NCBI GenBank assembly: GCA_963625935.1
Contig: CAVFVD010000009.1
Coordinates: 4,094-68,093, forward strand
Direction: 5' to 3'
From: an uncultured Oscillospiraceae bacterium
Lineage (GTDB): Bacteria; Bacteroidota; Bacteroidia; Bacteroidales; Bacteroidaceae
DNA length: 64,000 nucleotides
The notes under the pieces were generated by a model. It ran no database searches. It was not told the origin of the DNA and worked only from the letters and a program-made list of their open reading frames with translations. Shown in pieces: positions 1-19,217 of the stretch. Position numbers and translations under genes: made by a program. Within the stretch, counting starts at the first letter, position 1; each line of letters opens with the position of its first letter.

Positions 1-1042
1 TCAAAACCGAAGCGCATCTCTCCCGCCATGTGGTCGGGACGCTCAATGAAATACCCGTTGTAGTCCATTGGGAGACGCTTTGTCTTGCTCTCGCCTTTCT
101 CGCGATACTCCGCCGTGCGCTCCACGCCTACTGCGCTTGCGTCTATTGCCTGCGCGGACTTTTGCCCGTTCACGCGCTTGCGTATGACGATAATGTCGGA
201 CGTTACGGGCGTGCCGCCGAACGTCTTGTTGTTCAGTCTGAACGCGCCGATGAAGTCCGCGCCGCCCGCGCCCGTCACCCACTCGCGCAGGGCTTTGCCG
301 CTGTCAAGCGTGGCGTTGGACGTGATGAATATGCCTATGCCGCCCTCGCGCAGCTTGCGCACGTTCTTTGCGATGCAGAAGTCCTGTATCTTGCGGAATT
401 TCTTGGAAAGGTCGCCGTCGCCCGTGGTGTCGTTGACGCGCAAGTCCGCCACGAAAGGCACGTTGGTTATCGCCAAGTCCACGCTTCCGTTGGGGATGCG
501 CGTCTCCTCAAAGCCTTGTATCTCCACTTGCGCGTCGGGGTAGAGCAGGGAGAGGATGCCGCCCGACGTGCTGTCTATCTCTATGGCGCGGATGTCGCTC
601 CGCCCGCTCATCTCCGTGGGCATCTGCCCCAAGATGTTGCCTATGCCAGCCGAACCCTCCAAGACGCTGCCGCCCTTGAAGCCGAGCTTCGCCGCGATGT
701 CCCAAAGCGTGTCCACAACGCTCGCGGGGGTGTAGTACGCGCTCTTTGAGCTAAGCACGGCTTGCCCGTAGGCTTCCTCCCCGAGAAGCTCGCGTATCCT
801 TTTGTTGCGCTCGCGCTGCTTCCAGTCGCGGCTCGCTTCGTTGAACGCCGCGCCCAAGCCGCCCCAGCCGCTGAAGCGGCGAAGCACGCCCATCTGCTCG
901 GGCGTGGCGGTCTCGCCGCTCCCGAGCAACTCCTGCGCCAGCTCAATTGCCTTGATGTTGGCGTCAATGCGCGCGTCAACCGATTTCGGGGCGTGGTCTT
1001 CGCCGCGCTCCGAATGGTTGTTGCGTTTGTTCTTCCTTTCGC
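1..1042 (-). other. N6-adenine DNA methyltransferase module of the giant ORF (partial)
   Basis: Translation ...NIKAIELAQELLGSGETATPEQMGVLRRFSGWGGLG...VLEGSAGIGNILG (motif I, about 636-663) and DLAITNVPFVADL (motif IV, about 451-471). The frame is continuous with the giant ORF, and there is no ATG near its start. Confidence 0.75.
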
Positions 1043-4000
1043 TTAGTCCAGAAAGTCCGACTTGCAGAGACCCATTTTCCCGAGTGCCAAGTCCTCGTCC
1101 TCCAGCGTCAGCTCTTCCACTTTCTTGCCCAGTTCCTTGGCTACGGCTTCTTTCGCCGCCGCGTAGTCCTTGTTGTTGTCCACTTCCGTCGGTTGGCAGT
1201 CCTTCGGGGCGTACTCCCGCATGATGTCGTTCCAGTCCATTGTCTTGCTCTTTATTTGTTTCTGATGTGTCGGTCAAGCCTGCGAACAAGTCGCCCGCAG
1301 CCTGCCCCTCTTTTTCTTTTTTGCCGCCGTTCGCTTTCTTGTCAGAGGATTTTGGCGTTACTTTGCCACGCGGTTTGTCAGTGTGCCGCGCAGCTTGCAC
1401 TTCATTCGTCGGAGCTATAGCGCTTACGCCTCCGTCAGCTGACATCTCGTCGTACGCCGTCAAGACCCAGTTCTTGGCGGCTATTTTCTTGCCGCCCTCT
1501 CTGACGTTCTTGCGGATGGTGACGACCTTGCCGTCTTTCTTGAACACGACTTTGTCGCCGTTCTCAAACGAGACTTCGCCCGTCTTGATGATTTCGTCAA
1601 TGGCGCGCGCGGCTTCGCTCGCCGTGGGGAAGCTTTTCCCCTCCCCGACGTGCTTGCCCAGAATGTGGGCGAAACCGCCGCGCTCGTCTCCCCATACGAC
1701 ATCAATCTCGCCCACTCCGTCACGCGAGAACACCCCGAGCAAGTCTCCGCCTTTGCGTGAGGTCAAGAATGCAGCCGCTTCCTGCGGCTTTCCCTTGAAT
1801 TGGTCGTACACGTCGCCGAACGTTCCTTTGCCTACGGGTTTAATGCCCTCCGGGGCGGGAACGGCCTCCGGCTTCGTGGAATATTTGTATCCTGCAAACG
1901 CATCACTTCCTATATACGGGAAGAATACATTTTCCGCCCACTTGTTGGCTCTTTCAGCATCGCCGCCAAATGTATTGCGGATGATGTCACCCAGTGCGTG
2001 ATACCATTTATACGCTTCTTCCGTATCGCCCTTGTCAATGGCTTCTTTGTAGAACTTAGCCCAATTGTGTCCGTTCCCTTTCAAAACTTCCCCAATCAGC
2101 TCATCGTCCGTTCTCCTCTTTCCTTTTGCCGCGTTTGCTTCACGCTCTGCCTTGGCTTCCTCGTTATGCTTCGTCGCGGCTTCATCGGCAAAAGTAGCGT
2201 CTGCGCCCGTTTGGGCAAAGCCCGTGTCCGTCTGCTTCTGCTTCTCCTGCTCCTTGCGCCGCTCGTTGCGCTTGTCCTTGATAGCCTTTCCAGCCTTTTC
2301 CGCTTCGGCTTCCGCCTTGCTCTCCGCAGCGACCATCTCCGCTTGGGCGAAAACGTCCTTGCTCGGCTTGTCAAAGTTGGCGGTGTCAAAGGCTCGCACC
2401 TCGTCGTAAGGGGTAAGCCCCTCCGCATACTCTGCCATCTCGGGCAGGTCACGCGCCCCGTTGTAGAAAGCTTTGAGGTACGGGCGTACCGCTTCGCCCA
2501 AGTCGGCAATCATATCCTTTGCAAACTCGGCAAACTTACGCGCCCCCTTTTCTATGTGGTACACCGCCATCTCCGTGCCGATAGCGAGTATCTCGGGGTC
2601 AACGCCCATATTGAGCTGCCCGCGCAGCTTGGCTCTCATCCGCTTCTTCAGCTCCTCGTAACGCTCGTCCGTCACAAGCTTGTTGCCGCTCGGGTTTTCC
2701 TTGAGCTGCTCCGCCTTGGGCTGCTCCGCCTTGGTTTCGGACGTGTTCCCCTCTGCGGAATGCTCCGTTTTGGGCGCGTCCTTGGGCGCGGGGCCGTTCT
2801 TTGAAAGGTACTCCGCGTAGTCGTACGCCGTCTTTCCGAGGAAATACCCGTTTACCACATAGTCCACCTTGCGCGGGTGCGTCTCCTCCCAACGCCGCTG
2901 CTCCGCCCCGGACATGGCGTTCCACCTGCGCGGGTGCGGCTGGTCATAGGGTTTCTTCTCAAAGACGAGGTCGCCCGCCGCGTGGTGCTTCTCTATGTAC
3001 TCGGCGATGGTCATCGCGCCCTCTTCGCCAAATTTTACGGATTTCCCCAGTGCTTTGTCCGCAGACGACGCCTGCAGCGCGGTCTTCCCTTTGAGGAAAC
3101 CGTTGTGCTTCCGCTCAAGTTCCTTTTTCCTCTGCGCCTTGGCTTCCTCCGCCTCCTTGCGCTGCTGGTTGTCCTTGGCAGCCAAGAGGGTGAACCGCAA
3201 GTCGCTCAACTCCTCTGCGGCTTGGTTGACGCGCTTAATGTAGTCCGAGTATTCCGTCCGCAGTTCTTCGCCTGCCTGCTGTTCGCTCATCTCGCCCGCA
3301 GCCACCTTTTTGAGGAGCGCGTCGCGCTTCGCCCTGAACGCCGCGGCTTCGGGGAAGAGTTCCGCTTCCTCCGCCGTGTTGTAGTGCAAGGCATTGTCAA
3401 GGAGTTTCTCGCGCTTCTCCATCTCGCTGATGTCCGAATCCGCCGTCCATTCTTTGCGCTCGTACGCGGGCTTCTTCCCGCCGTCCTCCTCCTCGTGCGT
3501 CTCCGTCTTCACCGCGTCGCGCATGTCCTTGGCAGAGAGCGGCTGGTTGTCCGCCACGGCTTCCGGGTTCGCCGCTATCTCGGCGGCTTTCCGCGCGTCC
3601 TCTTCCGTGCGGAACATCCACCCGCCGCTCTTGCGGTCTTTCCATCCGCGTGCGGGGGCGAAACGCCCCTTGCCAGTCCGCTCCTTGGCAAACTCGCTGA
3701 CGGCGCGTGCCTGCTCCTCCGTCAGCTCCTTTTCAAAGGTGAGCAAATGCACATCGCTCGTCTTGCCTTTCTTGTTGGTGTAGGTCGCGGGAGCGATGGT
3801 GTAGCCCTTGCCCTCGGTTTGCTTGACCCCATCTTTTGCAGGAGATTTCTCGGAAATTTCTTGCACTTTTGGGGAATTATGGTCACTTTTGCCATCGGAT
3901 ATATCAGACGAATTGATACCGTGCAAGGCAAGCTGATTGTCGTCAGAGGTAGGCTTGTTCGAATCGTCAAGAGGTAATGACTCCTCGCTCTGCGCAACGG

Positions 4001-7000
4001 ATGCAGACTGATTTTCCACAGAAGTACTTCTATCTAAGACATTCGCGAGAATGTCACGATAAAGGGCAATACCTCCGTGAGGCTGAAACGCTGCGGTTTG
4101 AAGGGTATTGCCCTTCTTTATTTTGTCGGCCACAAATACCTCATGCACATACAAACGATTTTTGTTTGTATCTTGCATAGCTCTACAAAATACATAACAA
4201 CGTTCCCCTTTATAATTTATCGGGTATGCGAAATAATGGTTGTTTACTCCTTCTTGACGAACAAAGTCAGGTAATGTTCCGAGATATACAGCATTCTCAA
4301 AACCATCAACCAAAGACGTAATCGCATCAAGTTTTGCTTGCCCATAACGATGAGCAAGTGAGTCTTCCATTGATGTGTTGTTTATTTCCACCTCTCCTGC
4401 CTCCGTGTCGTAGAACACTGGTTCCGGGACATTTTCGTTCCACCATTTCTCTGCGGCTTTTCTTGCAGACATTTCGGCAGTAGCTACGATTTGTCCTTCT
4501 GCCACGTCAACGGCATAGGCATCGCGCAGCATTTCTCCACGACGTTCCTTTTCCTCGTCTGACATAGTACGAGGGTCATGCAGCGTTACTGTCTGTCTGG
4601 GTTCGGTATTCTGTGAGGATAGCGAATGTTCGCCAGCTTCCTCTGTTTCTCCACTGCGCCCATCAGCGTCTGCAGCTTCCACAGCTTCTTCTGCGCGTCG
4701 CTTCCGTTCTGCGACTGCATTGCTGACTGCGTCCTGTTGTTCTTTTCCTGTTGCATTTCTGAAATATTCGTTTACACCTTTGAGTATTTCCTCCTTTGAG
4801 CGCAAGCCGCCGCTGAACATATCGGTCTGACCGCTTGCGGGGGCTTCCGCCTCGTTGTTGTAGAGAGCGAAGACCTTGCGCAAGTCGCTCGGCTTGCCGC
4901 TGTTCAGCACATCGGCAAGGAGAAGCACTGTCGCGTCCGTCACGCGGCTGTCGCCGTACTCCTCGTCAAACAGCCCCTGCTCCCGCCCGTAGGGGGACAC
5001 AGCCACGCCGTCGCGGTATATTCCGGGGTGCGCCGTCCTCGCGCGGTACACAAGGTCAACCGCCGCGCCCAGCTCTGCGCCCAAGTCATACCCGCTCGCG
5101 GCAAATGCGCGGTTGTGCGCAATCTCCCCAAGGGCAAGCGTCACGCTCTGGCGCAGAACGGGCGTGCTTATAATCTGCCGCACCGCGTCGGGCGAGGACT
5201 GAAACACCTTGCCTATAAGCGTGTTCTCTATCAGCTCGCGCCCCGCCGCGCTTAGCGAGTTGCCCGTGCGCAGCGCGGGAAGCTCCATCTCGTTGATTAC
5301 CCCCGCTTCGAGCAATAGCTGCAAGGCGGAGTTAGCCGCCGCCCCGTCCGCGTAATAGTCCGAAAGGCGGTCATAACGGCTGATGTCGCCCACAATGCGG
5401 GCGAACACGTTGTCCGGGACGACCTTTCCGAGCTTCACGGCGTGTTCGGGCTTGCTCTGCGCTTTCTTGTCCTGCGCGTTGAAACGTGCAAAAGTCGCCG
5501 CGTCGTAAGGCAACGCCTCGTCCGGGACAAACACCACGCGCGGATGCTCCATCCCGTCCACCTGCTCGGGCGTGAAGCCGTACATCGCGCCGTACTCCTT
5601 AAGGTGCGCCACATACGCGCCGTCCGTGCCTTGGCGTGCCGCGAGGTCGCCCGACATTGTGCGGTTGTTTCCAGAAAGCACAATGCCGTCTCCGCTCACC
5701 ACGACGGGGGACTGCAACGCACGCCCGTCATACGCGTCCGCCATCTCGCGCACCCTGCGCTGCGCGTCCGCATCGCGCTTGTAGTCGCGGTCGTTCACGC
5801 TGCCGCCGTTCTCGTCCACGGGGAAGCCCTCCGTCTGCTCAAAGCCGTTTTCCACGTCGTGGCTCGCAGTAGCCGCGCCAGCTTCCGTGAGGACATAATG
5901 CCCGCGCAATACCGTTCCGTCCTCAAGCGTGACTGCATGCGCGTTGCCCACAGCCTTGCGCGACTTGTCCCATTTCTCCTTAATTTTCGGGTTTACCGCG
6001 TGCGTGCCGACCTCGGCTTGCTCGGCGGCTTGCTCGGCGGCAATGCGCTTGTCCTCCGCAAGCTGCTCTTTCGCCGCTTCCACGCGCTCATCGAACTTCT
6101 TTCTCTGCTCCTCGCGCTCCGCCACGACGACCTTGTCCTGCTGGCGTTTCACTTCTTCCCAGTAGGCAAGCTCTGCTTCCGCTTCCTTTTTCGCCGCTTC
6201 GTACCGCGCTTTCTCCGCCTTGTACTTCTCAATGTCTGTCCCCATTTTGGGCTTGCGCAGACCCTTGCCTTTCGCCTTTGCTTCCGCCTCCTTGCGCTTG
6301 GCTTCCACAAAAGCGTCGGCCTCCTCCCTGTCAAGCCCGCTGTCCTTGTACACATAGCGGTGCGTCCGCTCGGGCGTTGCGGCGGAAAAATCCGGCGTCA
6401 TACGCCCGTCCTTTTCCTGCTTCATCGGCATAGCGTCCTCTTCGGGCTGCGGAGTTTCCTCCGTGTCCGCTGCTGGCGCGGCGGCTTCGCCGTTCTCCTC
6501 GCCTTGGGCAATTGGTGCTTCCTCCGGCACGCTTTCGCCGTTTTCCGCAACGGCGGGCGTGTTTCCCTCCGCCTGCACGCCGTTCCCGTCTGCCGCGCTC
6601 TCGTCCGCGCGTTCCCAGTAAAGGTTGCCGTCCTCGTCCGTCACGCGCTGCAAAGCCGCGTCAAAGTCCGCTTTCTCCATACGCGCGGACATGCGCCCGT
6701 CTGCCATCGGCTCTTCGGTGTTCACCACCACGCCACCGTCCTCGTCTATGTCCACAATCTCTCCGCTCGTGCCGTCGGCGAGGACAAACGTCTGACCTTT
6801 CTTGTAGCGCGGCTGCCCGTGCACGGCGGCGGCTTCTTGGCTCTCCGCCGCTTTCTTCTCCTCGTCGCGCTGGCGCGTGGCTTCCTTGCGGGACTTGTCC
6901 GCCGCCTGCTCTATCTCGTCACGGCTTACGCGCTCTATGGTGTTCCCGCCATCGGCGGACACGTTCACGGTGCCGTCGGCGTTCTCCGTGTTGCCGTCTT

Positions 7001-9959
7001 TGTCGGCGGTCACCGTCACTTGCCGCGTGTTGCCGTCCTTGTCCGTCAGAGTGTAGGTCGCGCCCGCCGACAAGTCCGCCGTTCCGTCTATCATCCCCGC
7101 CGTGCGCTCGGCGTACTCCTTGCGCGTCTCGTCCGCCACACGGGCTTTTTCCTGCGCCGCGTCAATCGGCGTGTCCACCTTTGCAAGCGCGTCGGGCGAA
7201 ACCATCATCTTCTCGCCCGTGGCGCGGTCAACTACAATAAGCGACTGCGAACTCTTGTCCTTGTCAATCGTCCCGTCCGCGTTAAGCGCGACACTGCCGC
7301 CGATTACATACACGCCGCGTTCCGTCCCGTCCGGGTTGCGCTCGCGGAGCGTGCCGCCTATAATCGTGCCTGTGTCCTTGTTGGTCACCGCGTCCGTCTC
7401 CGCAGTGCGGGCGGCAACCTCGCGCTTCATTCCGTCTTTCGCGCGGGAAACCATCCCGTCAAAGCGTTTCTTGGCAAGCCCGTACTCCATCGCCGCGTTG
7501 AGCGCGGCTTCCTCCGCGCTGTCAATGTGGCTCGTCACCCATTTCTCCGCGTCGCCGATAAAGCCGTCCACGTCCTCCGCGTTGATGCCGAAAGCCTGCG
7601 CCACCTTGGCGCGTGCGTCGTCAAGGCGGTTCTTCGCGTCGTTCATCCCCTCTGCGCCCTCCGTGAGATAGCCCGCGTCTCCCGCGTCCTGCATATCGCA
7701 AAGCCACTCTGTGGCGCGGGTCGTCATGTCTTTCGCGCTCTCGCGCTGCTGCTCGCGCTCGGCTGCTTCCTTGCGCTCGGCTGCCACCGTGCCTCTGTAC
7801 ACTTGGGCGCGGATGCCGTATTTCGCGGCGGTGTTGCGCACCGCAAACGGAATGCTCTCGTCCGCCATAAAACTGTTGAGGGCGGCTGTCGCTTCCTCGT
7901 CCGTCCCACGCAGGAGTTTCTCGCGCACGTCCGTCCAGCGCGTTGCAAGAGCCGGGAACGCGCCTTTATATATAGCGTCGTCCATTCGTGAGAGGTCGCG
8001 CAACGCTTCCCGTCTGCGACCCCGGTAACCCGCCACGCTTAACGCGGAGCAGAAACCGCTCATCAAGCCCACGCCAAGGAACGTGTCTATGTTTATGTCC
8101 TTGTTGAAAACACCCGTGTTCTCCGCGCTGTCAAGCGTCATGTCGCCGACGGTCAGCGCGTTCTCTATGTTGCCGACAACCTCCTCGGCATACTCGCCTA
8201 TCGTGCCGTTGAACTTCGCACGTTTGAGGATTTCGTCCACGTTCTGTTTCCAATTGGAGCTGTTCACGTCACGGATAAAGTCCGCCACGGAGGAAAGGCG
8301 CATCTTGTCAGACAGCTTGCTGAGGGGCTTCACCTTGCCCAACACGCGTCCCGCCGTCTTGCCCGCCGCGCCAATCAGCGGGGCGAAATACTCGCCCACC
8401 ATCTCGCTGTGGTTCTCTATCGTCTGCGCCCCGAAAGCCTTTGCGTAGGCTGCGAAAGCGTTGTCCTCCGCGCCCTCCGTCCCTTTGAACACGATGTCGC
8501 CCTCAGGGGATATGTCGGGCTGTATCTCGCCCGTCATTCTGCCCATCGTGTCGCCCGCGACGCGCATCTGCCCCGTTGTCGCGGTCATCGTTGCTGCACT
8601 TGCCAAGTCGCCCGCCACTCTCGCGCCGAGCTTCTTCGCCATATACTTCTTTGTGGCTTTCTTCACGGCGGCTTTGCCGTACTTCCTCACAAGGTTGCGC
8701 ACCACCTTGCGCTGCAGCCCGTGTCCCAAGCCGCTCGCGGGGTTCAGTATCATTTCCACCATAAACGGCAGACTCTCCGCCGTCACGCCGCCCGCCTTGT
8801 AGCCGCGCCCTATCTTGCTCCCGTACGTGCCTTGCACATAGGCGTTGTAAGCCGCCGCGTCAAGCAGCTTGCGCTCATCGTCCGTGTATTCGTCCGTGCC
8901 TGCGTGTCGCACTGCGGAAAGAGTGGCACTCGCGCTCCTCGCGTCGCTCTCGCCCGCGTCATAGAATGACTTTTTCTTCAACGTGTCTACAATGCCGCGT
9001 CCCGCGCCCTTGAAAAAGCCGCGCGTCTCTCCGGCTTGCTTCGCCCCCCATTGCGCGGCGCGTCCCAACAAGCCGTCGCCAAACGTTTGCTTTGCCCCGC
9101 TCACGGCTCTTGCGGTGAACTTGTCGTCCTCTGCCGCCGCTTTCACTTCCCGGATGGTGTTGAGCGCGTCCTCCAATTCGGAAATGCGGGCTTCCACTTG
9201 CTGCATGTCGCTGCGTGCGCTCTTCTCAATCTCATCTCGCATTAATCCGGCGCGTACCGAGCTGCCGCCCCTCACCCGCTGCCACCACGGGCGGCTGTCT
9301 TGCTCCTTGTCTATCTCGTCGCTGATGCGTTCGCGGTCCTTGTAGGCGCGTGCAAGGCGTGCGCGCACGTCCTCCTCCGTGCCAAGGCGTGCGATGGCCC
9401 TTTCGGCGGCTTCACGCCTGTCAATGTCGCCCTGCGCCCAGTCCGCCGCAGCCGCGCTATCGTAGGTGTAGCCGTCCGTGTCCGCGTATCTTCGGGAAAT
9501 CTGCGGCTTGCCGTCGTTCCACGTCACGCCGTAGCCGTCCTCTTCCACGCGCTTGTTGGCGGGCTTGGAGCTGCTTGGGAAGCCGAGCGTGGTCTTCGCC
9601 ACGCCAAGCGGGTTGCGCTTGACGGCGGACAGCTTCTTGTCTGCCCGCTTGAAAACATCTCGCCCCTGGTCTATCGTGGCTTGTATGCTGCCGACGCTGA
9701 ACGGCACGGTCTCCTTTCTCGGCGTGCGCAGACGCTGCATGAACTCCGCGTAGGTGCTGCCTACGTCCGCGCCGCCCTCTTTGAACGTGTCGTAAACTCT
9801 CTTACGGTTGGCGTAATTGGCGTTCCCCAAAAAACCTTTTGTGAACTCCTCATAGGTTTGTTCGTATCCCCCGTCAGCCATTGCGTCATACAAACGCTTG
9901 AGCTGGCTTATTTGAATTCCCCCTCTCTTGTTCGGCGTTCCGCCGTTCTCGCTTCCCAT
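1..9959 (-). CDS. Giant polyvalent protein, at least 3,319 codons in window, 3' end off the left edge (ParB-like, barnase/EndoU-like and N6-adenine methyltransferase modules plus large unknown regions)
   Basis: ATG at 9959-9957. The reverse frame with codon low coordinate divisible by 3 stays open to position 1 in my manual translation. The track lists no ORF in that frame, as expected when there is no in-window stop. Motifs seen: VVVSGDGIVLSGNNRTMSGDLAARQG, GVFSRDGVGEIDVVWGDERGGFAHILGKH, EGSAGIGN, ITNVPF. Confidence 0.8.
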   Translation of the reverse strand, partial: MGSENGGTPNKRGGIQISQLKRLYDAMADGGYEQTYEEFTKGFLGNANYANRKRVYDTFKEGGADVGSTYAEFMQRLRTPRKETVPFSVGSIQATIDQGRDVFKRADKKLSAVKRNPLGVAKTTLGFPSSSKPANKRVEEDGYGVTWNDGKPQISRRYADTDGYTYDSAAAADWAQGDIDRREAAERAIARLGTEEDVRARLARAYKDRERISDEIDKEQDSRPWWQRVRGGSSVRAGLMRDEIEKSARSDMQQVEARISELEDALNTIREVKAAAEDDKFTARAVSGAKQTFGDGLLGRAAQWGAKQAGETRGFFKGAGRGIVDTLKKKSFYDAGESDARSASATLSAVRHAGTDEYTDDERKLLDAAAYNAYVQGTYGSKIGRGYKAGGVTAESLPFMVEMILNPASGLGHGLQRKVVRNLVRKYGKAAVKKATKKYMAKKLGARVAGDLASAATMTATTGQMRVAGDTMGRMTGEIQPDISPEGDIVFKGTEGAEDNAFAAYAKAFGAQTIENHSEMVGEYFAPLIGAAGKTAGRVLGKVKPLSKLSDKMRLSSVADFIRDVNSSNWKQNVDEILKRAKFNGTIGEYAEEVVGNIENALTVGDMTLDSAENTGVFNKDINIDTFLGVGLMSGFCSALSVAGYRGRRREALRDLSRMDDAIYKGAFPALATRWTDVREKLLRGTDEEATAALNSFMADESIPFAVRNTAAKYGIRAQVYRGTVAAERKEAAEREQQRESAKDMTTRATEWLCDMQDAGDAGYLTEGAEGMNDAKNRLDDARAKVAQAFGINAEDVDGFIGDAEKWVTSHIDSAEEAALNAAMEYGLAKKRFDGMVSRAKDGMKREVAARTAETDAVTNKDTGTIIGGTLRERNPDGTERGVYVIGGSVALNADGTIDKDKSSQSLIVVDRATGEKMMVSPDALAKVDTPIDAAQEKARVADETRKEYAERTAGMIDGTADLSAGATYTLTDKDGNTRQVTVTADKDGNTENADGTVNVSADGGNTIERVSRDEIEQAADKSRKEATRQRDEEKKAAESQEAAAVHGQPRYKKGQTFVLADGTSGEIVDIDEDGGVVVNTEEPMADGRMSARMEKADFDAALQRVTDEDGNLYWERADESAADGNGVQAEGNTPAVAENGESVPEEAPIAQGEENGEAAAPAADTEETPQPEEDAMPMKQEKDGRMTPDFSAATPERTHRYVYKDSGLDREEADAFVEAKRKEAEAKAKGKGLRKPKMGTDIEKYKAEKARYEAAKKEAEAELAYWEEVKRQQDKVVVAEREEQRKKFDERVEAAKEQLAEDKRIAAEQAAEQAEVGTHAVNPKIKEKWDKSRKAVGNAHAVTLEDGTVLRGHYVLTEAGAATASHDVENGFEQTEGFPVDENGGSVNDRDYKRDADAQRRVREMADAYDGRALQSPVVVSGDGIVLSGNNRTMSGDLAARQGTDGAYVAHLKEYGAMYGFTPEQVDGMEHPRVVFVPDEALPYDAATFARFNAQDKKAQSKPEHAVKLGKVVPDNVFARIVGDISRYDRLSDYYADGAAANSALQLLLEAGVINEMELPALRTGNSLSAAGRELIENTLIGKVFQSSPDAVRQIISTPVLRQSVTLALGEIAHNRAFAASGYDLGAELGAAVDLVYRARTAHPGIYRDGVAVSPYGREQGLFDEEYGDSRVTDATVLLLADVLNSGKPSDLRKVFALYNNEAEAPASGQTDMFSGGLRSKEEILKGVNEYFRNATGKEQQDAVSNAVAERKRRAEEAVEAADADGRSGETEEAGEHSLSSQNTEPRQTVTLHDPRTMSDEEKERRGEMLRDAYAVDVAEGQIVATAEMSARKAAEKWWNENVPEPVFYDTEAGEVEINNTSMEDSLAHRYGQAKLDAITSLVDGFENAVYLGTLPDFVRQEGVNNHYFAYPINYKGERCYVFCRAMQDTNKNRLYVHEVFVADKIKKGNTLQTAAFQPHGGIALYRDILANVLDRSTSVENQSASVAQSEESLPLDDSNKPTSDDNQLALHGINSSDISDGKSDHNSPKVQEISEKSPAKDGVKQTEGKGYTIAPATYTNKKGKTSDVHLLTFEKELTEEQARAVSEFAKERTGKGRFAPARGWKDRKSGGWMFRTEEDARKAAEIAANPEAVADNQPLSAKDMRDAVKTETHEEEDGGKKPAYERKEWTADSDISEMEKREKLLDNALHYNTAEEAELFPEAAAFRAKRDALLKKVAAGEMSEQQAGEELRTEYSDYIKRVNQAAEELSDLRFTLLAAKDNQQRKEAEEAKAQRKKELERKHNGFLKGKTALQASSADKALGKSVKFGEEGAMTIAEYIEKHHAAGDLVFEKKPYDQPHPRRWNAMSGAEQRRWEETHPRKVDYVVNGYFLGKTAYDYAEYLSKNGPAPKDAPKTEHSAEGNTSETKAEQPKAEQLKENPSGNKLVTDERYEELKKRMRAKLRGQLNMGVDPEILAIGTEMAVYHIEKGARKFAEFAKDMIADLGEAVRPYLKAFYNGARDLPEMAEYAEGLTPYDEVRAFDTANFDKPSKDVFAQAEMVAAESKAEAEAEKAGKAIKDKRNERRKEQEKQKQTDTGFAQTGADATFADEAATKHNEEAKAEREANAAKGKRRTDDELIGEVLKGNGHNWAKFYKEAIDKGDTEEAYKWYHALGDIIRNTFGGDAERANKWAENVFFPYIGSDAFAGYKYSTKPEAVPAPEGIKPVGKGTFGDVYDQFKGKPQEAAAFLTSRKGGDLLGVFSRDGVGEIDVVWGDERGGFAHILGKHVGEGKSFPTASEAARAIDEIIKTGEVSFENGDKVVFKKDGKVVTIRKNVREGGKKIAAKNWVLTAYDEMSADGGVSAIAPTNEVQAARHTDKPRGKVTPKSSDKKANGGKKEKEGQAAGDLFAGLTDTSETNKEQDNGLERHHAGVRPEGLPTDGSGQQQGLRGGERSRSQGTGQESGRADAGGRGLGTRENGSLQVGLSGLSERKNKRNNHSERGEDHAPKSVDARIDANIKAIELAQELLGSGETATPEQMGVLRRFSGWGGLGAAFNEASRDWKQRERNKRIRELLGEEAYGQAVLSSKSAYYTPASVVDTLWDIAAKLGFKGGSVLEGSAGIGNILGQMPTEMSGRSDIRAIEIDSTSGGILSLLYPDAQVEIQGFEETRIPNGSVDLAITNVPFVADLRVNDTTGDGDLSKKFRKIQDFCIAKNVRKLREGGIGIFITSNATLDSGKALREWVTGAGGADFIGAFRLNNKTFGGTPVTSDIIVIRKRVNGQKSAQAIDASAVGVERTAEYREKGESKTKRLPMDYNGYFIERPDHMAGEMRFGF
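1043..1240 (-). CDS. 65-aa ORF in the +1 frame inside the giant ORF (possible overprinted or recoded gene)
   Basis: ATG at 1240 with an A-rich leader and TAA at 1043. Its third codon positions are strongly G/C, like the other genes here, whereas the giant-ORF frame over the same bases is A/T-rich at third positions and Gly/Arg/Ser/Gln-rich. Confidence 0.45.
   Translation of the reverse strand: MDWNDIMREYAPKDCQPTEVDNNKDYAAAKEAVAKELGKKVEELTLEDEDLALGKMGLCKSDFLD
1450..1830 (-). other. Barnase/EndoU-like (PBECR/DUF3519-looking) module of the giant ORF
   Basis: FGDVYDQFKGKPQEAAAFLTSRKGGDLLGVFSRDGVGEIDVVWGDERGGFAHILGKHVGEGKSF...VVFKKDGKVVTIRKN. The family assignment is from memory of polyvalent-protein domains and has not been searched. 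Confidence 0.45.
3825..4805 (-). other. AT-richer in-frame domain cassette inside the giant ORF
   Basis: Composition drops visibly compared with the flanks. The segment encodes ...WWNENVPEPVFYDTEAGEVEINNTSMEDSLAHRYGQAKLDAITSLVDGFENAVYLG...GERCYVFCRAMQDTNKNRLYVHEVFVADKI... Confidence 0.6.
5520..5960 (-). other. DdrB/ParB-like nuclease-fold domain of the giant ORF
   Basis: ASHDVENGF...VNDRDYKRDADAQRRVREMADAYDGRALQSPVVVSGDGIVLSGNNRTMSGDLAARQG. Confidence 0.6.
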
Positions 9960-9983
9960 ATTGCTCTTTGTCCGTTTCTTTTG

Positions 9984-13933: not shown

Positions 13934-16717
13934 TCACCTCATCTTGCCGCCGAACCTCGGCAGCACCTCCGCCGAAAAGCCCGACAAGGTCTCGTCTATG
14001 CAGAGCCAAGTGGTGTACAGCAAGCGGAAATACTTGTACGGCGTGCCGCTGAAGCCGCGCATATAATGCCCCTCCGCCGCCCAAACCGGGTGCCAGTCCC
14101 TGCCGCGCAGGTCGTTCGTCCCGTAAAGCACTTGCTTCTGCTCTCTGCCGTTCGCCTCGTTCCACCCGATGGCGCGGAAATCGCCGCGCTGCGCCAACTC
14201 CGATATGGTCTTGCGCGTGTCGGGCGCGCCGAACTTGAACGGGCGCGTCAAGAGGAACATCCTGCTCTGCGCGTTTATGGGGACATCCCTGTCTTGGTCA
14301 ACGCTCAGGTTAAGCACCACGCCGTCCCTTTTCTGCGCGATACATTCCGGGTAGGAGTTGATGTCAAACAAATACGGGTTGTCGCACATTCCCCAAGAGC
14401 GCGTCCGCAGCGAATACACATAGGCGTACTGGTGTTTTGTGTTGTACACCGTCACGCGCTGGTGCGCGTAGTCGTACATAAGGTTGCAGTCCGTGAGGTA
14501 GTCGGCGAACGCCGCTATTTGGAAGCTGTCCTTGCCGAGGAGCTTGCACGCTCCGGGCATTTCGCCCAAGTCAAGCGTCCCGAAGTTGTCAAGCATTTCG
14601 CTCACGCATTCCACGCTTGACCCGCTGACGTGCATAATGCCGCGCTCCGTGGCGAAAAGCACGCTCCCGTCAAGCTGCGCCACCGCGTCTTGCCCAAGGC
14701 ACACGTCACGCGCGAACGGCTGCTTTGACGAGAAGCCGCCAGTTGACGAGGTCTCCAACGCCCACACGCCGTCCGAACACAAGGCGTATAGCGGGAACTG
14801 TCCGAACTGCCCTTGCGACAACGCCTTTGCAGCCGATGTCACGCTGATGATTTCTCCCGCGCCGATGGTGTTGATGTTCGTCACGGGGAACATAAACGGG
14901 TTGTTCACCTCGGACGTGTACAGCTTGTTCGGGACGCTCATCTCCACGCTTGCGGAAATCACCTCCGGCTCTTGGGTCGTCCCCGGTATCGGCCTGTCCC
15001 CTACGTTCTGCGCTTCGTCCGCCCATCCGTCCATGCGCCCGTGCAGCCCGTCAAAGAAATACGAGCCGTTGAGGAATTTGTGGCGCGTCAGTTTCGCACA
15101 ACGGGAGCGCGTGTGTTGCACGTTGCCGTCCTTGTCCATCATCTCCTCAACCACCATCACTTTCTTCGCGTACGGGCTGTGGTGGTAGAACCACACAAGC
15201 GGAGTGTACCACCCCGCATTCGTCCAAGTGCCGCACTGCACAAGTTGCTCCGCCCCGCCGTCCGGCTCTATCCACACATACACGCTCACGCGGCACGGGT
15301 CGTTGTAATTGTCCGGGGCGTGCAGCGGTGTTTCCGCGCCGCCGTTGTAATGCACGCACCCGTCCGTGTGCGGGAAAAGGCATCGCGCGGACGCGCCCTT
15401 GTATATGCTCTTCTCTATGTTGTAAAGGTTCATCCGCGAGTTGTACGCCACCGCCCCTCTCGGGCGCAGCTCATCGTGGCTGTCGTAGTCGTCCGTCATG
15501 ACCTCGCGGTTCAGCAAAGACTGCAAATAGTCGTCCGCCACATCCACTTCCACCCTCTCGCCCTGCTTCAAGTCGTCAAGGGATATGCTGCTCAAAAGGA
15601 AGAAATTGGATGCTTCCGTAAAGCCCTTTTTCACCTCATCGTCACCCTTCTGCGGAAGCGAGCAATATGTGCCTGTCGGCGCATAAGGTATGTGCCGCGC
15701 GTAAACGACCTCTTGCTTGGTACTCGTGTTGCCGCTCGCGCTTGTCGTCTGCACGAGTGCGGAAGCCCTGTACACGCCGTAGTGCATGCGTTGCGAGTCC
15801 CACCCGTTGGTCAAAGGCTCAACGCGGTTCGTGAACTCGCCGCCTTGGTCATAGTACCTGATGCCCTCGGTGACGAAAATGTCCACGCTCTGCACGATGT
15901 CCGCCCATTCTTTCAGCTTGGCAAGACCGTCTGTAACCTGCATATCCAGTTTCGCCACCACGGCACTTGTGGTGAATGTCAGGAACTGGTAGCCATCGTC
16001 TTTTTTCCTCCACTCCCCCTTGACCATCGGCACGAAGCCCGCGTTCGGTATCATAAGCACGGGCGCGGAGTGCATTGTCAGCGTGCCGTCAAAAAGCCGG
16101 AATGCATAGCGCACAAAGAAAGGGAACATGAATTTCCCTTTCTTCGTAGCGTAATTGGCAATAAACTTGTTCGCAGCCGATTGCGCGGCGAGCTTTCCCT
16201 CGTCTATAACTACCGAAGCAAAGTAAGTGCCTTTGTCATAATATTTATACGGATTTTCCTCTATCTGCTGCTCCACCGTTCCGCGCAGCCCGAACGATAT
16301 GCCCAGCTCCGGCAGATGGCTGCCAAGAGCTTTGTACGCATCGCTCTTCCAAAGGTAGTAGTACGGCTTGTGCGTGGTGTCCTCAATAAAGAGGAGCGTG
16401 TTACCAAGCACCGTGATGCGCCCCGGACCGCCGACTTGCCCTATCACGTTAAGCACCGCCCTGCTCCCGTCCTCCGTTTCCGTCCAGCAAAGCTCAAAAT
16501 TCCCGTTGACGACAATGTAGTGCTTGAATTTCGCGGTCTCGTGCACCGCCAATATTTTGCAGTCGCTGTCTAACCTCATGACGCACTCCCCCTTCAGCAC
16601 GGGGCGCAGCCCGCCAACGTCCGGGACGGCGTTCATGCACACCGACAGCTCGCCGTCCGTGCAGAGCCTGTCGGGCGTGGCGGACGTGACCCCGCCGTAA
16701 CCCACCTCTTGTCTCAT
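13934..16717 (-). CDS. Large hypothetical protein (927 aa), possibly virion-associated
   Basis: Long clean track ORF. I recognise no catalytic motifs. Confidence 0.85.
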   Translation of the reverse strand: MRQEVGYGGVTSATPDRLCTDGELSVCMNAVPDVGGLRPVLKGECVMRLDSDCKILAVHETAKFKHYIVVNGNFELCWTETEDGSRAVLNVIGQVGGPGRITVLGNTLLFIEDTTHKPYYYLWKSDAYKALGSHLPELGISFGLRGTVEQQIEENPYKYYDKGTYFASVVIDEGKLAAQSAANKFIANYATKKGKFMFPFFVRYAFRLFDGTLTMHSAPVLMIPNAGFVPMVKGEWRKKDDGYQFLTFTTSAVVAKLDMQVTDGLAKLKEWADIVQSVDIFVTEGIRYYDQGGEFTNRVEPLTNGWDSQRMHYGVYRASALVQTTSASGNTSTKQEVVYARHIPYAPTGTYCSLPQKGDDEVKKGFTEASNFFLLSSISLDDLKQGERVEVDVADDYLQSLLNREVMTDDYDSHDELRPRGAVAYNSRMNLYNIEKSIYKGASARCLFPHTDGCVHYNGGAETPLHAPDNYNDPCRVSVYVWIEPDGGAEQLVQCGTWTNAGWYTPLVWFYHHSPYAKKVMVVEEMMDKDGNVQHTRSRCAKLTRHKFLNGSYFFDGLHGRMDGWADEAQNVGDRPIPGTTQEPEVISASVEMSVPNKLYTSEVNNPFMFPVTNINTIGAGEIISVTSAAKALSQGQFGQFPLYALCSDGVWALETSSTGGFSSKQPFARDVCLGQDAVAQLDGSVLFATERGIMHVSGSSVECVSEMLDNFGTLDLGEMPGACKLLGKDSFQIAAFADYLTDCNLMYDYAHQRVTVYNTKHQYAYVYSLRTRSWGMCDNPYLFDINSYPECIAQKRDGVVLNLSVDQDRDVPINAQSRMFLLTRPFKFGAPDTRKTISELAQRGDFRAIGWNEANGREQKQVLYGTNDLRGRDWHPVWAAEGHYMRGFSGTPYKYFRLLYTTWLCIDETLSGFSAEVLPRFGGKMR

Positions 16718-17729: not shown

Positions 17730-17907
17730 ACAAAACAACAGTCATAGGGTAATGCGCCAATGTGAGAATGTTGGTCGCGCCGCAAAACTCGTACCGCGTG
17801 GTGATTGTAGCGGCGCACATTCCGTTCGTCACATTCACCGCCCTCCGCGTACCCCCCCCATTGTCAAGCGGTTGCGGCGGTGCTACGCGTGTCAGTCGGA
17901 AGTACAT
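17719..17907 (-). CDS. Micro-ORF 1 (62 aa), contains a G8 tract and overlaps the methyltransferase stop
   Basis: MYFRLTRVAPPQPLDNGGGTRRAVNVTNGMCAATITTRYEFCGATNILTLAHYPMTVVLYEY. Confidence 0.4.
   Translation of the reverse strand: MYFRLTRVAPPQPLDNGGGTRRAVNVTNGMCAATITTRYEFCGATNILTLAHYPMTVVLYEY
17852..17859 (-). repeat. G8 homopolymer, tract 1
   Basis: Read directly: GACAATGGGGGGGGTACGCGG on the coding strand. Confidence 0.95.
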
Positions 17908-19217
17908 TCCTTGCGGTTTAGGTTGTCGTAGTACTCATAGTGGAAGCCCTCGCCGACTTTCAGCGCGCCGCCCTCCTTGAACCGCGCGTAAGCCAAGCGG
18001 AACTCGCCGTCCATAAGAAGAGACAAAGCCGCCTGCGCTTCCGCCGCAGTCTTGTCCCAAAGCCCGTACCCGCTCATTGCCCTTTGCAGCCACGTTTTGA
18101 GGAACATCGCGTCCTCGTGGCGCGGCGGTATGTCGTATTCCACAAACAGCGCATCGTCCTTGTCGTTCGCTTTGAGGAACTTTTCCACCGCCTTGTCTTT
18201 GAGGAAAAACCGCTCTTCCACGTTGTCCTCCAACACGTCCGCAAGACGTTTGTCAAGCGCAAAAGGCTCGGGGAACTTGTAGTCAAACGCCACATCCTTG
18301 CGCATTGACACGCAGAATACACGGTCCCTGTTCTGCGGCACGCCGTAGTCCTTTGCGTTGAGCTTCGCCCATCTGTTGACGTAGCCGAGACTTTCAAGGC
18401 GTTTCAGCCACAATTGGAAGTCGGGCATGAACTTTGCGCTGACCAGCGCGGCAACGTTCTCTTGCAAAAGGAACTTTGGCTTCAAGGCTTCCACCGCGTC
18501 CGCCACGTTCCAAAGCAAGGCGGAGCGCGTGCCTGCGCCCTCTGCCATTCCCATTTGCTTGCCCGCTTGGCTGATGTCTTGGCACGGCGAGGAATAGGTG
18601 AACAAGTCCACCTCGCGCCCGCCAAGGCTTTCCTTGACCGCGTTCCAGTCTATCTGCGTGATGTCGCCGAGAGCCTTGTCCGCGAACTGCGGGAAAACAA
18701 GGTCGTGCATTTGGCACGCGTACTTGTCTATCTCGCTCCACCCCGCGCACGTCCATTTGAAATCGGGGTGTTTCTCTCGCAGCGCGTCCGCCGCCATCAG
18801 TTGCGAGTCGTAGCCGCTGAACGTGGTGAGGAACACCTTTTCGCCCTTGTTGCCGTCAACGGGCATTGGCGGAAGCGCGTCTTCCGGGTAGAGCGCGTCA
18901 AGCAAGGACATTTGCCCTTGCGGCGCGTTCTCTTTCGGATACCACAGCTGTTCGTAGATAGCCGCAAGCACGTCCACTACGATAGAGTTTCCCGCCATCT
19001 TGTACTGCTGCGAGACGGAAACCGCCAAGTCCCCCTCCTTGCCTTTGCCAACGGGCTTGCAGTCCGCCAGCCTTTCGCGTGCTTGGCGCACGCTGCTCTG
19101 CATAGTGGCTATGACATCGTCCCGCACGCCCATAAGCCGGAAGCACTCTTTTGGCGTGAGCTTGCGCACGGCGTAGCTCTTAATCGTGCGGTCTTTGAAG
19201 TTGATTTTCGTCACCAT
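17892..19217 (-). CDS. DNA (cytosine-5) methyltransferase with permuted motif order (IX-X before I-VIII)
   Basis: RKLTPKECFRLMGV and MAGNSIVVDV lie near the N-terminus. FSGYDSQ, SSPCQDISQAGK, LLQENV and PQNRDRVF follow. Confidence 0.9.
   Translation of the reverse strand: MVTKINFKDRTIKSYAVRKLTPKECFRLMGVRDDVIATMQSSVRQARERLADCKPVGKGKEGDLAVSVSQQYKMAGNSIVVDVLAAIYEQLWYPKENAPQGQMSLLDALYPEDALPPMPVDGNKGEKVFLTTFSGYDSQLMAADALREKHPDFKWTCAGWSEIDKYACQMHDLVFPQFADKALGDITQIDWNAVKESLGGREVDLFTYSSPCQDISQAGKQMGMAEGAGTRSALLWNVADAVEALKPKFLLQENVAALVSAKFMPDFQLWLKRLESLGYVNRWAKLNAKDYGVPQNRDRVFCVSMRKDVAFDYKFPEPFALDKRLADVLEDNVEERFFLKDKAVEKFLKANDKDDALFVEYDIPPRHEDAMFLKTWLQRAMSGYGLWDKTAAEAQAALSLLMDGEFRLAYARFKEGGALKVGEGFHYEYYDNLNRKECTSD

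Follow-up and report, generated by a model that had tools for sequence, protein, structure and literature searches.

A 64,000-nucleotide (nt) stretch of DNA from an uncultured Oscillospiraceae bacterium (GTDB lineage Bacteroidales; Bacteroidaceae), taken from contig CAVFVD010000009.1 of GenBank assembly GCA_963625935.1 (positions 4,094 to 68,093 of the forward strand) and here referred to as the window, carries at its left end a giant open reading frame (ORF) for a DarB-like polyvalent protein. Wholly inside this giant ORF and on the same minus strand lies a small ORF, complete from start to stop, at positions 1043 to 1240. The data described below make it very probable that this small ORF is a real protein-coding gene, nested in the +1 frame within an interdomain linker of the giant gene, and that the linker frame is selectively kept open, which would make this a case of genuine dual coding. 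An earlier note on this DNA had offered dual coding as one of three readings, next to programmed +1 then -1 recoding and the fusion of formerly separate genes by loss of a stop. The dual-coding reading is upheld by purifying selection that acts in the small frame only, by a linker frame free of stops, and by free-standing copies of the small gene.

Results

The small ORF comprises 65 codons, beginning with an ATG at 1240 to 1238 and ending with a TAA at 1045 to 1043, and its first base falls on codon position 2 of the giant frame. Upstream, the small frame is closed by a TGA at 1274 to 1276 (minus strand), 12 codons 5' of the ATG with 11 open codons in between, and any hypothetical +1 shift into the small frame would be confined to these 11 codons. 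The GC contents at codon positions 1, 2, and 3 of the small ORF are 0.62, 0.29, and 0.82, and a T occupies the third position in only 2 of the 65 codons. Over positions 1253 to 1044, giant-frame position 3 has a GC content of 0.23 to 0.37 and giant-frame position 1, which is small-frame position 3, one of 0.73 to 0.87; elsewhere near the same end of the giant ORF, position 3 mostly has 0.67 to 0.93, with a drop to 0.43 to 0.60 just 5' of the overlap (1463 to 1254). The codon-position GC pattern thus shifts from the giant to the small frame across 1253 to 1044 and then back. What the earlier note had described from the letters of this region was borne out: the ATG, the 65 codons, the TAA, the peptide, and the +1 frame; the G/C-rich third positions of the small frame over bases at which a giant frame of 3327 open codons has A/T-rich ones; the return of G/C third positions in the giant frame after the TAA; the lack of a giant-frame ATG between the TAA and the residues EQMGVL of the methyltransferase module; and the TGA that closes the +1 frame.

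The length of an ORF is uninformative by itself in the giant ORF, because 32 same-strand, alternative-frame stretches of at least 60 codons are open within it. Three of these 32 exceed the giant frame in third-position GC content over the same bases, namely, that of the small ORF (0.76 versus 0.30) and that at 4586 to 4771 (0.70 versus 0.36), both strongly, and that at 6640 to 6422 (0.79 versus 0.74), marginally. The stretch at 4586 to 4771 (minus strand, +1 frame, 61 codons, of which 56 run from an ATG, 4586 to 4756) shows the same inversion of third-position GC, is preceded by a DMFSGGL motif, and was considered as a second nested gene. It was rejected and is taken to be an A/T-rich linker, because in a comparison with related locus L009 the giant frame is better conserved than the alternative frame (62% versus 50%, also with many more matches) and because the alternative peptide is of low complexity and rich in Gln, Asn, and Lys. 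It is conservation from locus to locus that lifts the small ORF above chance expectation.

A scan of genome collections and of viral contigs for relatives gave 70 related loci. A small ORF of 54 to 87 codons in the +1 frame is kept in about 57 of them, from Prevotella, Leyella, and Bacteroides genomes and IMG/VR contigs, a systematic pass found a +1 ORF in every locus with an intact junction, and among about 60 loci none was seen in which the small ORF is disrupted and the giant ORF intact. In nearly all loci, the small ORF begins with M-D-[YW] and ends with GLCPLDFMD directly before the stop codon, and the giant frame is open for more than 4000 codons. The distance from the end of the small ORF to the methyltransferase module is 11 to 71 nt across loci, usually 14 to 35 nt, which puts this end 20 nt 5' of NNHxERG, the core of the conserved sequence KNxRNNHxERGxDYAPK; in the window, the TAA lies 8 nt 5' of the conserved start of the module. 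The small peptide is 49 to 68% identical in more than 50 of the 70 loci (96% in the near-identical locus L014) and is better conserved than the linker peptide. The earlier note had proposed to ask which of the two frames is conserved among homologues, and the answer, the small frame and not the linker, is the opposite of what would speak against a nested gene.

Conservation of the arrangement extends beyond that of the peptide. In loci whose methyltransferase is 52 to 70% identical, the peptide gives no BLAST match, yet a +1 ORF of 54 to 74 codons stands in the same place. The small peptides of this divergent type follow the pattern M.KLTYNLAP...RMNRWERA..MK..ELT.EEW... and range down to 10 to 25% identity with the ATG and stop still intact, and the two peptide types can be aligned via a common core that consists of AP near the N terminus and K..[VLM].[ED]LT..E. 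An 87-codon version is present in the cultured phage BKO1-TP3, in whose record it is unannotated. A tblastn search of phage and plasmid collections with the 65-amino-acid (aa) peptide gave no match, and the family is absent from these collections at that sensitivity.

The two frames differ in the kind of selection that they show. The ratio of nonsynonymous to synonymous substitution rates (dN/dS; Nei-Gojobori, summed over all pairs of 26 unique 65-codon sequences) is 0.25 in the small frame, whereas it is 1.40 in the giant frame, that is, in the linker, which is no better than the 1.48 of the third, noncoding frame. Mean nucleotide diversity is 0.095, 0.081, and 0.196 at small-frame codon positions 1, 2, and 3, respectively. 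The amino acid sequence of the small protein is constrained by purifying selection, and that of the linker is not. Such clustering of substitutions at small-frame third positions is the pattern of a protein and not that of an RNA or DNA site, and for a constraint at the nucleotide level we see an exceedingly small chance, as we do for an assembly artifact in which two compensating indels displaced an in-frame domain. A junction motif upstream of the small gene, GDLF(G/A)GLF, is indeed conserved at synonymous positions, and the giant frame is interrupted in draft contig L008 and in L060; however, more than 60 independent assemblies share the arrangement, as do finished genomes of cultured phages, and no large protein with the domain in frame was found in database searches.

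The giant frame is maintained in a different manner. When the synonymous codons of each small peptide were redrawn at the codon frequencies of the giant ORF at that locus, 1.3 to 8.6 giant-frame stops were expected per locus across the nested ORF, and none is present in any of 16 diverse loci, with the probability of an open giant frame ranging from <0.00025 to 0.25; for the window, 2.3 to 2.8 stops were expected and none is found. The third frame has 2 to 15 stops in the same 16 loci. The giant frame is held open by selection. This is achieved mainly through avoidance of T at the third position of those small-gene codons that precede a codon starting with AA, AG, or GA, and among these stop-prone contexts, of which there are 26 to 30 per sequence, none is T-ending.

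It could be argued that the small ORF is what remains of a gene that was fused recently and is no longer expressed, and that it looks conserved only through the close kinship of the loci. Many of the IMG/VR loci are near-identical, with 18 sharing one peptide, and expression of the small ORF is so far a prediction from its sequence. However, the ORF is intact in the divergent loci described above, in which the methyltransferase has fallen to 52 to 70% and the small peptide to 10 to 25% identity; its dN/dS value is that of a protein under constraint; the arrangement is present in four phyla; and free-standing copies outlast the loss of the giant gene. In light of this, we regard such a relic as very unlikely and the nested gene as probably functional.

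Relatives of the small gene were found by a profile search of 5.8 billion proteins, which returned 86 relatives, all of 38 to 126 aa, and by an exhaustive HMMER search, which returned 19, all small apart from one large match (P0087, 3905 aa) that was set aside as spurious, being a Ser/Thr-rich repeat protein. Four contexts can be distinguished. In the first, the contig breaks just 5' of the gene, which led the gene caller to report the small ORF, and it is because of such breaks that gene callers report the small ORF only on fragments of this kind. In the second, the small gene comes first and stands 41 nt 5' of the called start of a 3575-aa methyltransferase-helicase gene without the long N-terminal part. 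The third consists of independent genes with AT-rich intergenic flanks and a canonical Bacteroidetes TAtcTTTG box 5' of the gene, followed by a protein kinase gene or located within a defense-type island. The fourth is a truncated remnant beside a Kinase-PolyVal fragment. Individual relatives include P0069 (L079 to L082), which stands free before a Ser/Thr kinase-TPR gene in an integrase/DnaB element; P0055 (L083 to L084), which stands free in an island with WYL, REase-ARP, and YAcAr genes; and P0085 (L085), which is truncated and next to the Kinase-PolyVal fragment. Because free-standing relatives adjoin kinase or island genes, the small protein is not tied to the methyltransferase module alone, and the existence of such copies shows that the small gene apparently functions on its own.

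The free-standing copies start at the same methionine as the nested ones but differ from them in the second frame. In the frame equivalent to that of the giant gene, 9, 1, and 2 stops are found in L083, L081, and L100, respectively, versus none in nested copies, and the fraction of codons with T at the third position is 0.40, 0.14, and 0.09, versus 0.04 to 0.07 in nested copies. In a free-standing copy from Burkholderia dolosa, the giant-gene flanks are lost, and the linker frame has two stops. Since free-standing copies acquire stops there, it is the presence of the giant gene that keeps the linker frame open.

Two further relatives are of note. In L077 (7886 to 8252), the small gene comes first and the polyvalent gene lacks the long N-terminal part; the methyltransferase frame is open for 122 codons 5' of its called ATG and spans the entire small gene, and the conserved KNTRNNHAERG motif likewise lies 5' of the called ATG, with a TTG at 7952 and ATGs at 8123 and 8252 as candidate starts. 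The 126-aa P0076, from a 708-nt ENA contig, starts in the giant frame (..LLSGLFGDDE..VHVQARPGTSEREGGHQ) and then continues in the frame of the small gene (RNRMSRWERANNMKMSELT..); either an indel variant or a read error accounts for the joining of the two frames.

The small gene has its own candidate start signals. The nested ATG is invariant across loci, and directly 5' of it in the window lies an A-rich leader (1241 to 1262, minus strand) with an A at position -3. The earlier note had described this leader as A-rich, and 65% of the 20 nt 5' of the ATG are indeed A, a level matched by only 0.1% of the 20-nt segments of the giant ORF. Across 22 Bacteroidales loci, the mean A content of the leader is 0.52 versus a background of 0.29, and an A is present at -3 in 20 of the 22. 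Bacteroidota reportedly initiate translation largely without Shine-Dalgarno pairing and use A-rich, Kozak-like start contexts. The A-rich leader is presumed to be the translation initiation context of the nested gene in its Bacteroidota host.

Slightly further upstream lies the junction motif GDLFAGL of the giant frame (1275 to 1295, minus strand), which marks the start of a block common to all relatives that runs from this motif through the nested gene to the methyltransferase. In the form (V/I)GDLF(G/A)GLF, the motif is found 20 to 45 nt 5' of the nested ATG in most loci. Many loci align to the giant protein only from query residue 150 to 194 or so onward, and the modules 5' of the junction differ between loci. 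The motif is kept at synonymous positions too (GGCGATTTGTTTGCC; window, L004, L058, L071, and others), and the GDLF codons read GATTTGTTTG in most nested loci and GACTTGTTCG in the window. An exact Bacteroidetes -7 box, TAtcTTTG, is present in free-standing copies and in L005 and L059 at about the same place as the junction motif. The noncoding DNA 5' of the free-standing gene in L081 still reads LSLFEDAEDVSP, a remnant of the polyvalent junction. The GDLF codons may contain an internal promoter or may be the recombination boundary of the cassette. Contigs L071 to L074 and L075, like many metagenomic contigs with the nested gene, break 90 to 260 nt 5' of the gene, which fits mosaic, variable modules 5' of a cassette in which junction, small gene, and methyltransferase-helicase are conserved.

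The same arrangement occurs in other phyla. In gp75 of Bcep22 (Burkholderia) and gp01 of VvAW1 (Vibrio), the codon usage log-likelihood moves from frame 0 to +1 for about 100 codons and then back. Shine-Dalgarno sites precede the nested ATG in both (AAGGAGG in Bcep22 and AGGAG in VvAW1) as well as in Pavtok and LASTA (GAGG) and in Itty13 and Atu_ph08 (GGAG). In tblastn searches with the nested peptides of Bcep22 and VvAW1, one query matched 21 records, from Klebsiella, Erwinia, Pseudomonas, Agrobacterium, Sinorhizobium, Ochrobactrum, and Microcystis phages, and another matched 41 records, from Burkholderia and Ralstonia phages; in all matched records of both queries, the peptide is located under the giant gene. 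In nine genomes that were inspected, the small frame is +1 to the giant frame, and GGAG-type sites stand before most of the ATGs. Mean pairwise identity across genera is 0.55 in the small frame, 0.38 in the linker, and 0.41 in the third frame. Cultured phages with the nested gene are Bcep22, VvAW1, LASTA, Pavtok, Itty13, Atu_ph08, POI1126, Dimitile, Mwe-JY07, and BKO1-TP3, and many gut prophages have it as well. In the phage records inspected, no separate gene is annotated there, with the exception of Sinorhizobium phage PBC5, in which orf33 ends with the domain.

In a Listeria plasmid element with a GC content of 39%, the giant gene, preceded by an AAGGAG site, begins with an ArdC-N-like part, crosses a 114-codon +1 ORF, and then enters the methyltransferase. 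The nested ORF of Listeria, like the proteobacterial ones, has a Shine-Dalgarno site. This nested ORF passes the threshold of the Pfam family TnpV (PF14198; 29.0 bits versus a cutoff of 27), and NCBI names its product "TnpV protein" on 778 contigs. TnpV is a small protein encoded by transposons, plasmids, and conjugative elements. Weak TnpV matches were obtained for 5 of 10 proteobacterial nested ORFs (best E value, 1.8e-4). Neither the peptide of the window nor the Bacteroidales family has a Pfam match to TnpV (PF14198), and they are not counted as members of it. The arrangement is not universal, as an element of Streptococcus that resembles integrative and conjugative elements (L101) has no nested ORF.

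The product of the small gene would be acidic, with an isoelectric point of 4.4, and AlphaFold2 run with a 41-sequence alignment gave a confident three-helix model (pLDDT of 87, pTM of 0.61). A match to kleA_kleC (E = 0.007, below the cutoff) was dismissed as weak. Because of its fixed position before the methyltransferase-helicase and its occurrence before kinase-type polyvalent modules, the small protein is suggested to be a partner, regulator, or assembly factor of injected effectors.

The giant ORF itself extends from 3 to 9983 on the minus strand, and is 3327 codons or longer, as the left edge of the window cuts it off; its homologues reach 4400 to 5553 codons. According to Pfam, it contains LPD14, a ddrB-like ParB domain, and a PBECR1 nuclease (1443 to 1730), followed by the linker and then by the methyltransferase. 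The part of the linker that overlaps the small gene (1043 to 1253, minus strand) is nonconserved and stop-free, and with 27% Gly and 79% G/S/R/Q/E/T/D/P/N its composition is of a type predicted to be disordered. The DarB-like N6-adenine methyltransferase module (3 to 1034, minus strand) makes up the last 340 or so codons of the giant ORF in the window. It opens with the conserved motif KNKRNNHSERGEDHAPK (984 to 1034) and contains the motifs EGSAGIGN and NVPF. In tblastn searches, it matches "DarB-like antirestriction" proteins of 121 phage records, with an E value of 1e-14 for P1 DarB and 70% identity to gp55 of Bacteroides phage BKO1-TP3, and the giant protein can be called DarB-like in that its N6-adenine methyltransferase is homologous to that of P1 DarB and is preceded by the conserved N-terminal region. 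The window stops inside the methyltransferase, and relatives L075, L077, and L078 carry SNF2-rel_dom, Helicase_dom, and Helicase_C.

The region is a Prevotella-type prophage, as its neighboring genes encode RecE, RecT, a single-stranded DNA-binding protein, a replication initiator, and another methyltransferase. On the strand of the giant ORF, and not far from it, are a 927-aa protein that matches PHROG 32516 (13934 to 16717) and a second DNA methyltransferase (17892 to 19217). Past about 30 kb, gene character changes, with long plus-strand ORFs of 1530, 837, and 955 aa, and the stretch from about 32000 to 64000 is probably host chromosome beside the end of the prophage.

Discussion

The observations reported here can be accommodated by a simple scheme. 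Ribosomes on the giant ORF would cross the overlap in frame 0 and produce a Gly-rich spacer of arbitrary sequence that connects the N-terminal effector modules with the methyltransferase-helicase module. Other ribosomes, we infer, initiate independently at the internal ATG, behind the A-rich leader with its A at -3, and would produce a 65-residue acidic three-helix protein ending at the TAA, which may cooperate with the methyltransferase-helicase module. Selection acts on the small protein through its amino acid sequence and on the giant frame through its openness only.

Several points weigh against a nested gene that is translated in this way. Expression of both the small protein and the linker is at present deduced from the DNA, and initiation within an actively translated ORF may be inefficient. 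No significant relative of the small protein that would point to a function was found in Pfam, PHROGs, the PDB (by sequence and by Foldseek), or BFVD (by Foldseek). Homology between the Bacteroidales family and the TnpV-like family was considered and set aside, as no similarity between them was detectable (hhalign probability of 0.07%, obtained twice); without similarity between the families, common ancestry of the arrangement is unproven. Finally, in Sinorhizobium phage PBC5 (L094, AF448724), the 2185-aa orf33 is in frame with the TnpV-like domain and ends with it, and the methyltransferase frame opens 270 nt 5' of that domain (1 to 1809; 1233 to 3276). The cause is either a one-base sequencing error made in 2001 or natural variation, with the upstream protein and the domain fused in this phage. 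A profile named "endolysin," PHROG 938, has 2185 positions, which is the length of PBC5 orf33, and carries the domain at its C-terminal end.

With its N-terminal part and small domain sharing one frame as deposited, PBC5 brings up a programmed frameshift, in which some of the ribosomes on the giant ORF would shift +1 near the ATG and end at the TAA, yielding a truncated polyvalent protein with a 65-residue end and no methyltransferase-helicase or, in a variant of this idea, would return by a -1 shift. The C-terminal domain of PHROG 938 agrees with it, as do P0076, which switches from the giant frame into that of the small gene, and the constant +1 offset between the two frames. There is, however, hardly room for a conserved shift site: a small-frame stop is found 12 codons 5' of the ATG in the window and 2 codons 5' of it in Pavtok and LASTA, and in L037 it lies one codon before the codon preceding the ATG. 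The alternative frame is not open from a shift site in all homologues, the sequences 5' of the ATG vary between loci with no conserved site among them, and neither an X XXY YYZ nor a stop-stimulated +1 motif occurs at 1240 to 1276 or 1043 to 1060. The ATG, on the other hand, is invariant and stands behind an A-rich leader or, in other phyla, a Shine-Dalgarno site, free-standing copies begin at the same Met, and a -1 return at the TAA finds no supporting sequence. The recoding that the earlier note had entertained is for these reasons disfavored, and we think it unlikely; independent initiation of a nested gene accounts for the same observations with greater probability.

As for its origin, the arrangement is likely the result of a past gene fusion. 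The small gene would at first have stood alone, directly 5' of a methyltransferase-helicase gene, and effector modules would later have been fused to the latter by read-through of the small gene in its -1 frame. The third reading of the earlier note, fusion by loss of a stop, fits as a history of this kind, with the small gene found first before a methyltransferase-helicase gene that is without the N-terminal part and with upstream modules that vary.

Embedded out-of-frame genes are known from other phages, namely, Rz1 inside Rz in lambda and Bcep22-like phages and B, K, and E of phiX174. The gene described here resembles them in being a complete small gene with its own start within a longer gene, in the +1 frame, and with both frames maintained. 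It differs in that the host frame is a freely varying spacer that is kept only open and does not encode a folded domain (dN/dS of 1.40), in that the nested gene probably predates the linker, which is the overprinted novelty from the fusion, and in that the host gene is a polyvalent gene of 3300 to 5500 codons, with a position fixed at one module boundary across phyla. Nested out-of-frame phage genes are thus a known kind, and the overprinting of an older gene by a fusion linker at a fixed boundary is the differing feature here. For the phage group of JC1, the embedded Rz/Rz1 class was noted in the description of that phage (PMC9144972).

The dyad of an LPD36-methyltransferase and an SF2 helicase in polyvalent proteins was described by Iyer et al. 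in 2017 (PMC5512222), who also cited the antirestriction function of P1 DarB. The giant protein of the window shares a homologous methyltransferase module with P1 DarB and with DarB-like giant virion proteins, including Bcep22 gp75, JC1 gp69, and BKO1-TP3 gp55, and relatives have SNF2 and Helicase_C domains 3' of the methyltransferase. In BKO1-TP3 (L087, 4174 to 22872), the 5553-aa DarB-like gene adjoins the portal gene, as darB adjoins prt in P1 (L088). P1 darB differs in having neither the N-terminal extension nor a nested ORF; P1 Ulx was considered as a positional analogue and rejected, as ulx lies 3' of darB and encodes 146 aa. JC1 gp69 was detected in virions with 51 unique peptides, in a mass spectrometry search against annotated genes only (PMC9144972). 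Neither a nested gene nor TnpV is mentioned in the survey of polyvalent proteins (PMC5512222) or in the JC1 paper (PMC9144972), and the arrangement is undescribed in the literature that we found on polyvalent and DarB-like proteins, overlapping genes, and TnpV, coverage of which is incomplete, so that a prior description is possible.

The nested ORFs of the different phyla have in common that they encode small, helical proteins of similar size, of which the Listeria one is above the TnpV threshold; the family of the window is a positional analogue of the TnpV-like nested ORFs, with homology unproven. Tentatively, and with more doubt than confidence, one can go further and suppose that the DarB-like methyltransferase-helicase dyad has had a small TnpV-type protein as its obligatory partner, encoded directly before it, since before the split of Bacillota, Pseudomonadota, Cyanobacteriota, and Bacteroidota phages and plasmids, and that the Bacteroidales family is a TnpV diverged beyond recognition. 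The upstream modules would then have been forced, on fusion, through its -1 frame, and the giant antirestriction protein would depend on the small one to be active, regulated, or packaged into virions. If true, few known dual-coding regions of bacterial mobile elements would be as widely conserved, and TnpV would gain a first functional context.

In many phage genomes, giant DarB-like or polyvalent genes account for at least 20% of the sequence, under the annotation of a single gene. The present work indicates that such genes can contain a second, unannotated gene, which is under purifying selection in the Bacteroidales set and encodes a peptide conserved across genera elsewhere. Gene callers and domain surveys of polyvalent proteins miss genes of this kind, and what is taken for a low-complexity linker can conceal an out-of-frame gene. 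Overprinting by fusion, with free-standing copies as matched controls, should be useful for studying the origin of overlapping genes and of interdomain linkers. Since the nested gene has a fixed position before the methyltransferase-helicase, both the TnpV-like and the Bacteroidales families are given a testable context, in which the small protein may act in antirestriction or in the packaging of injected proteins.

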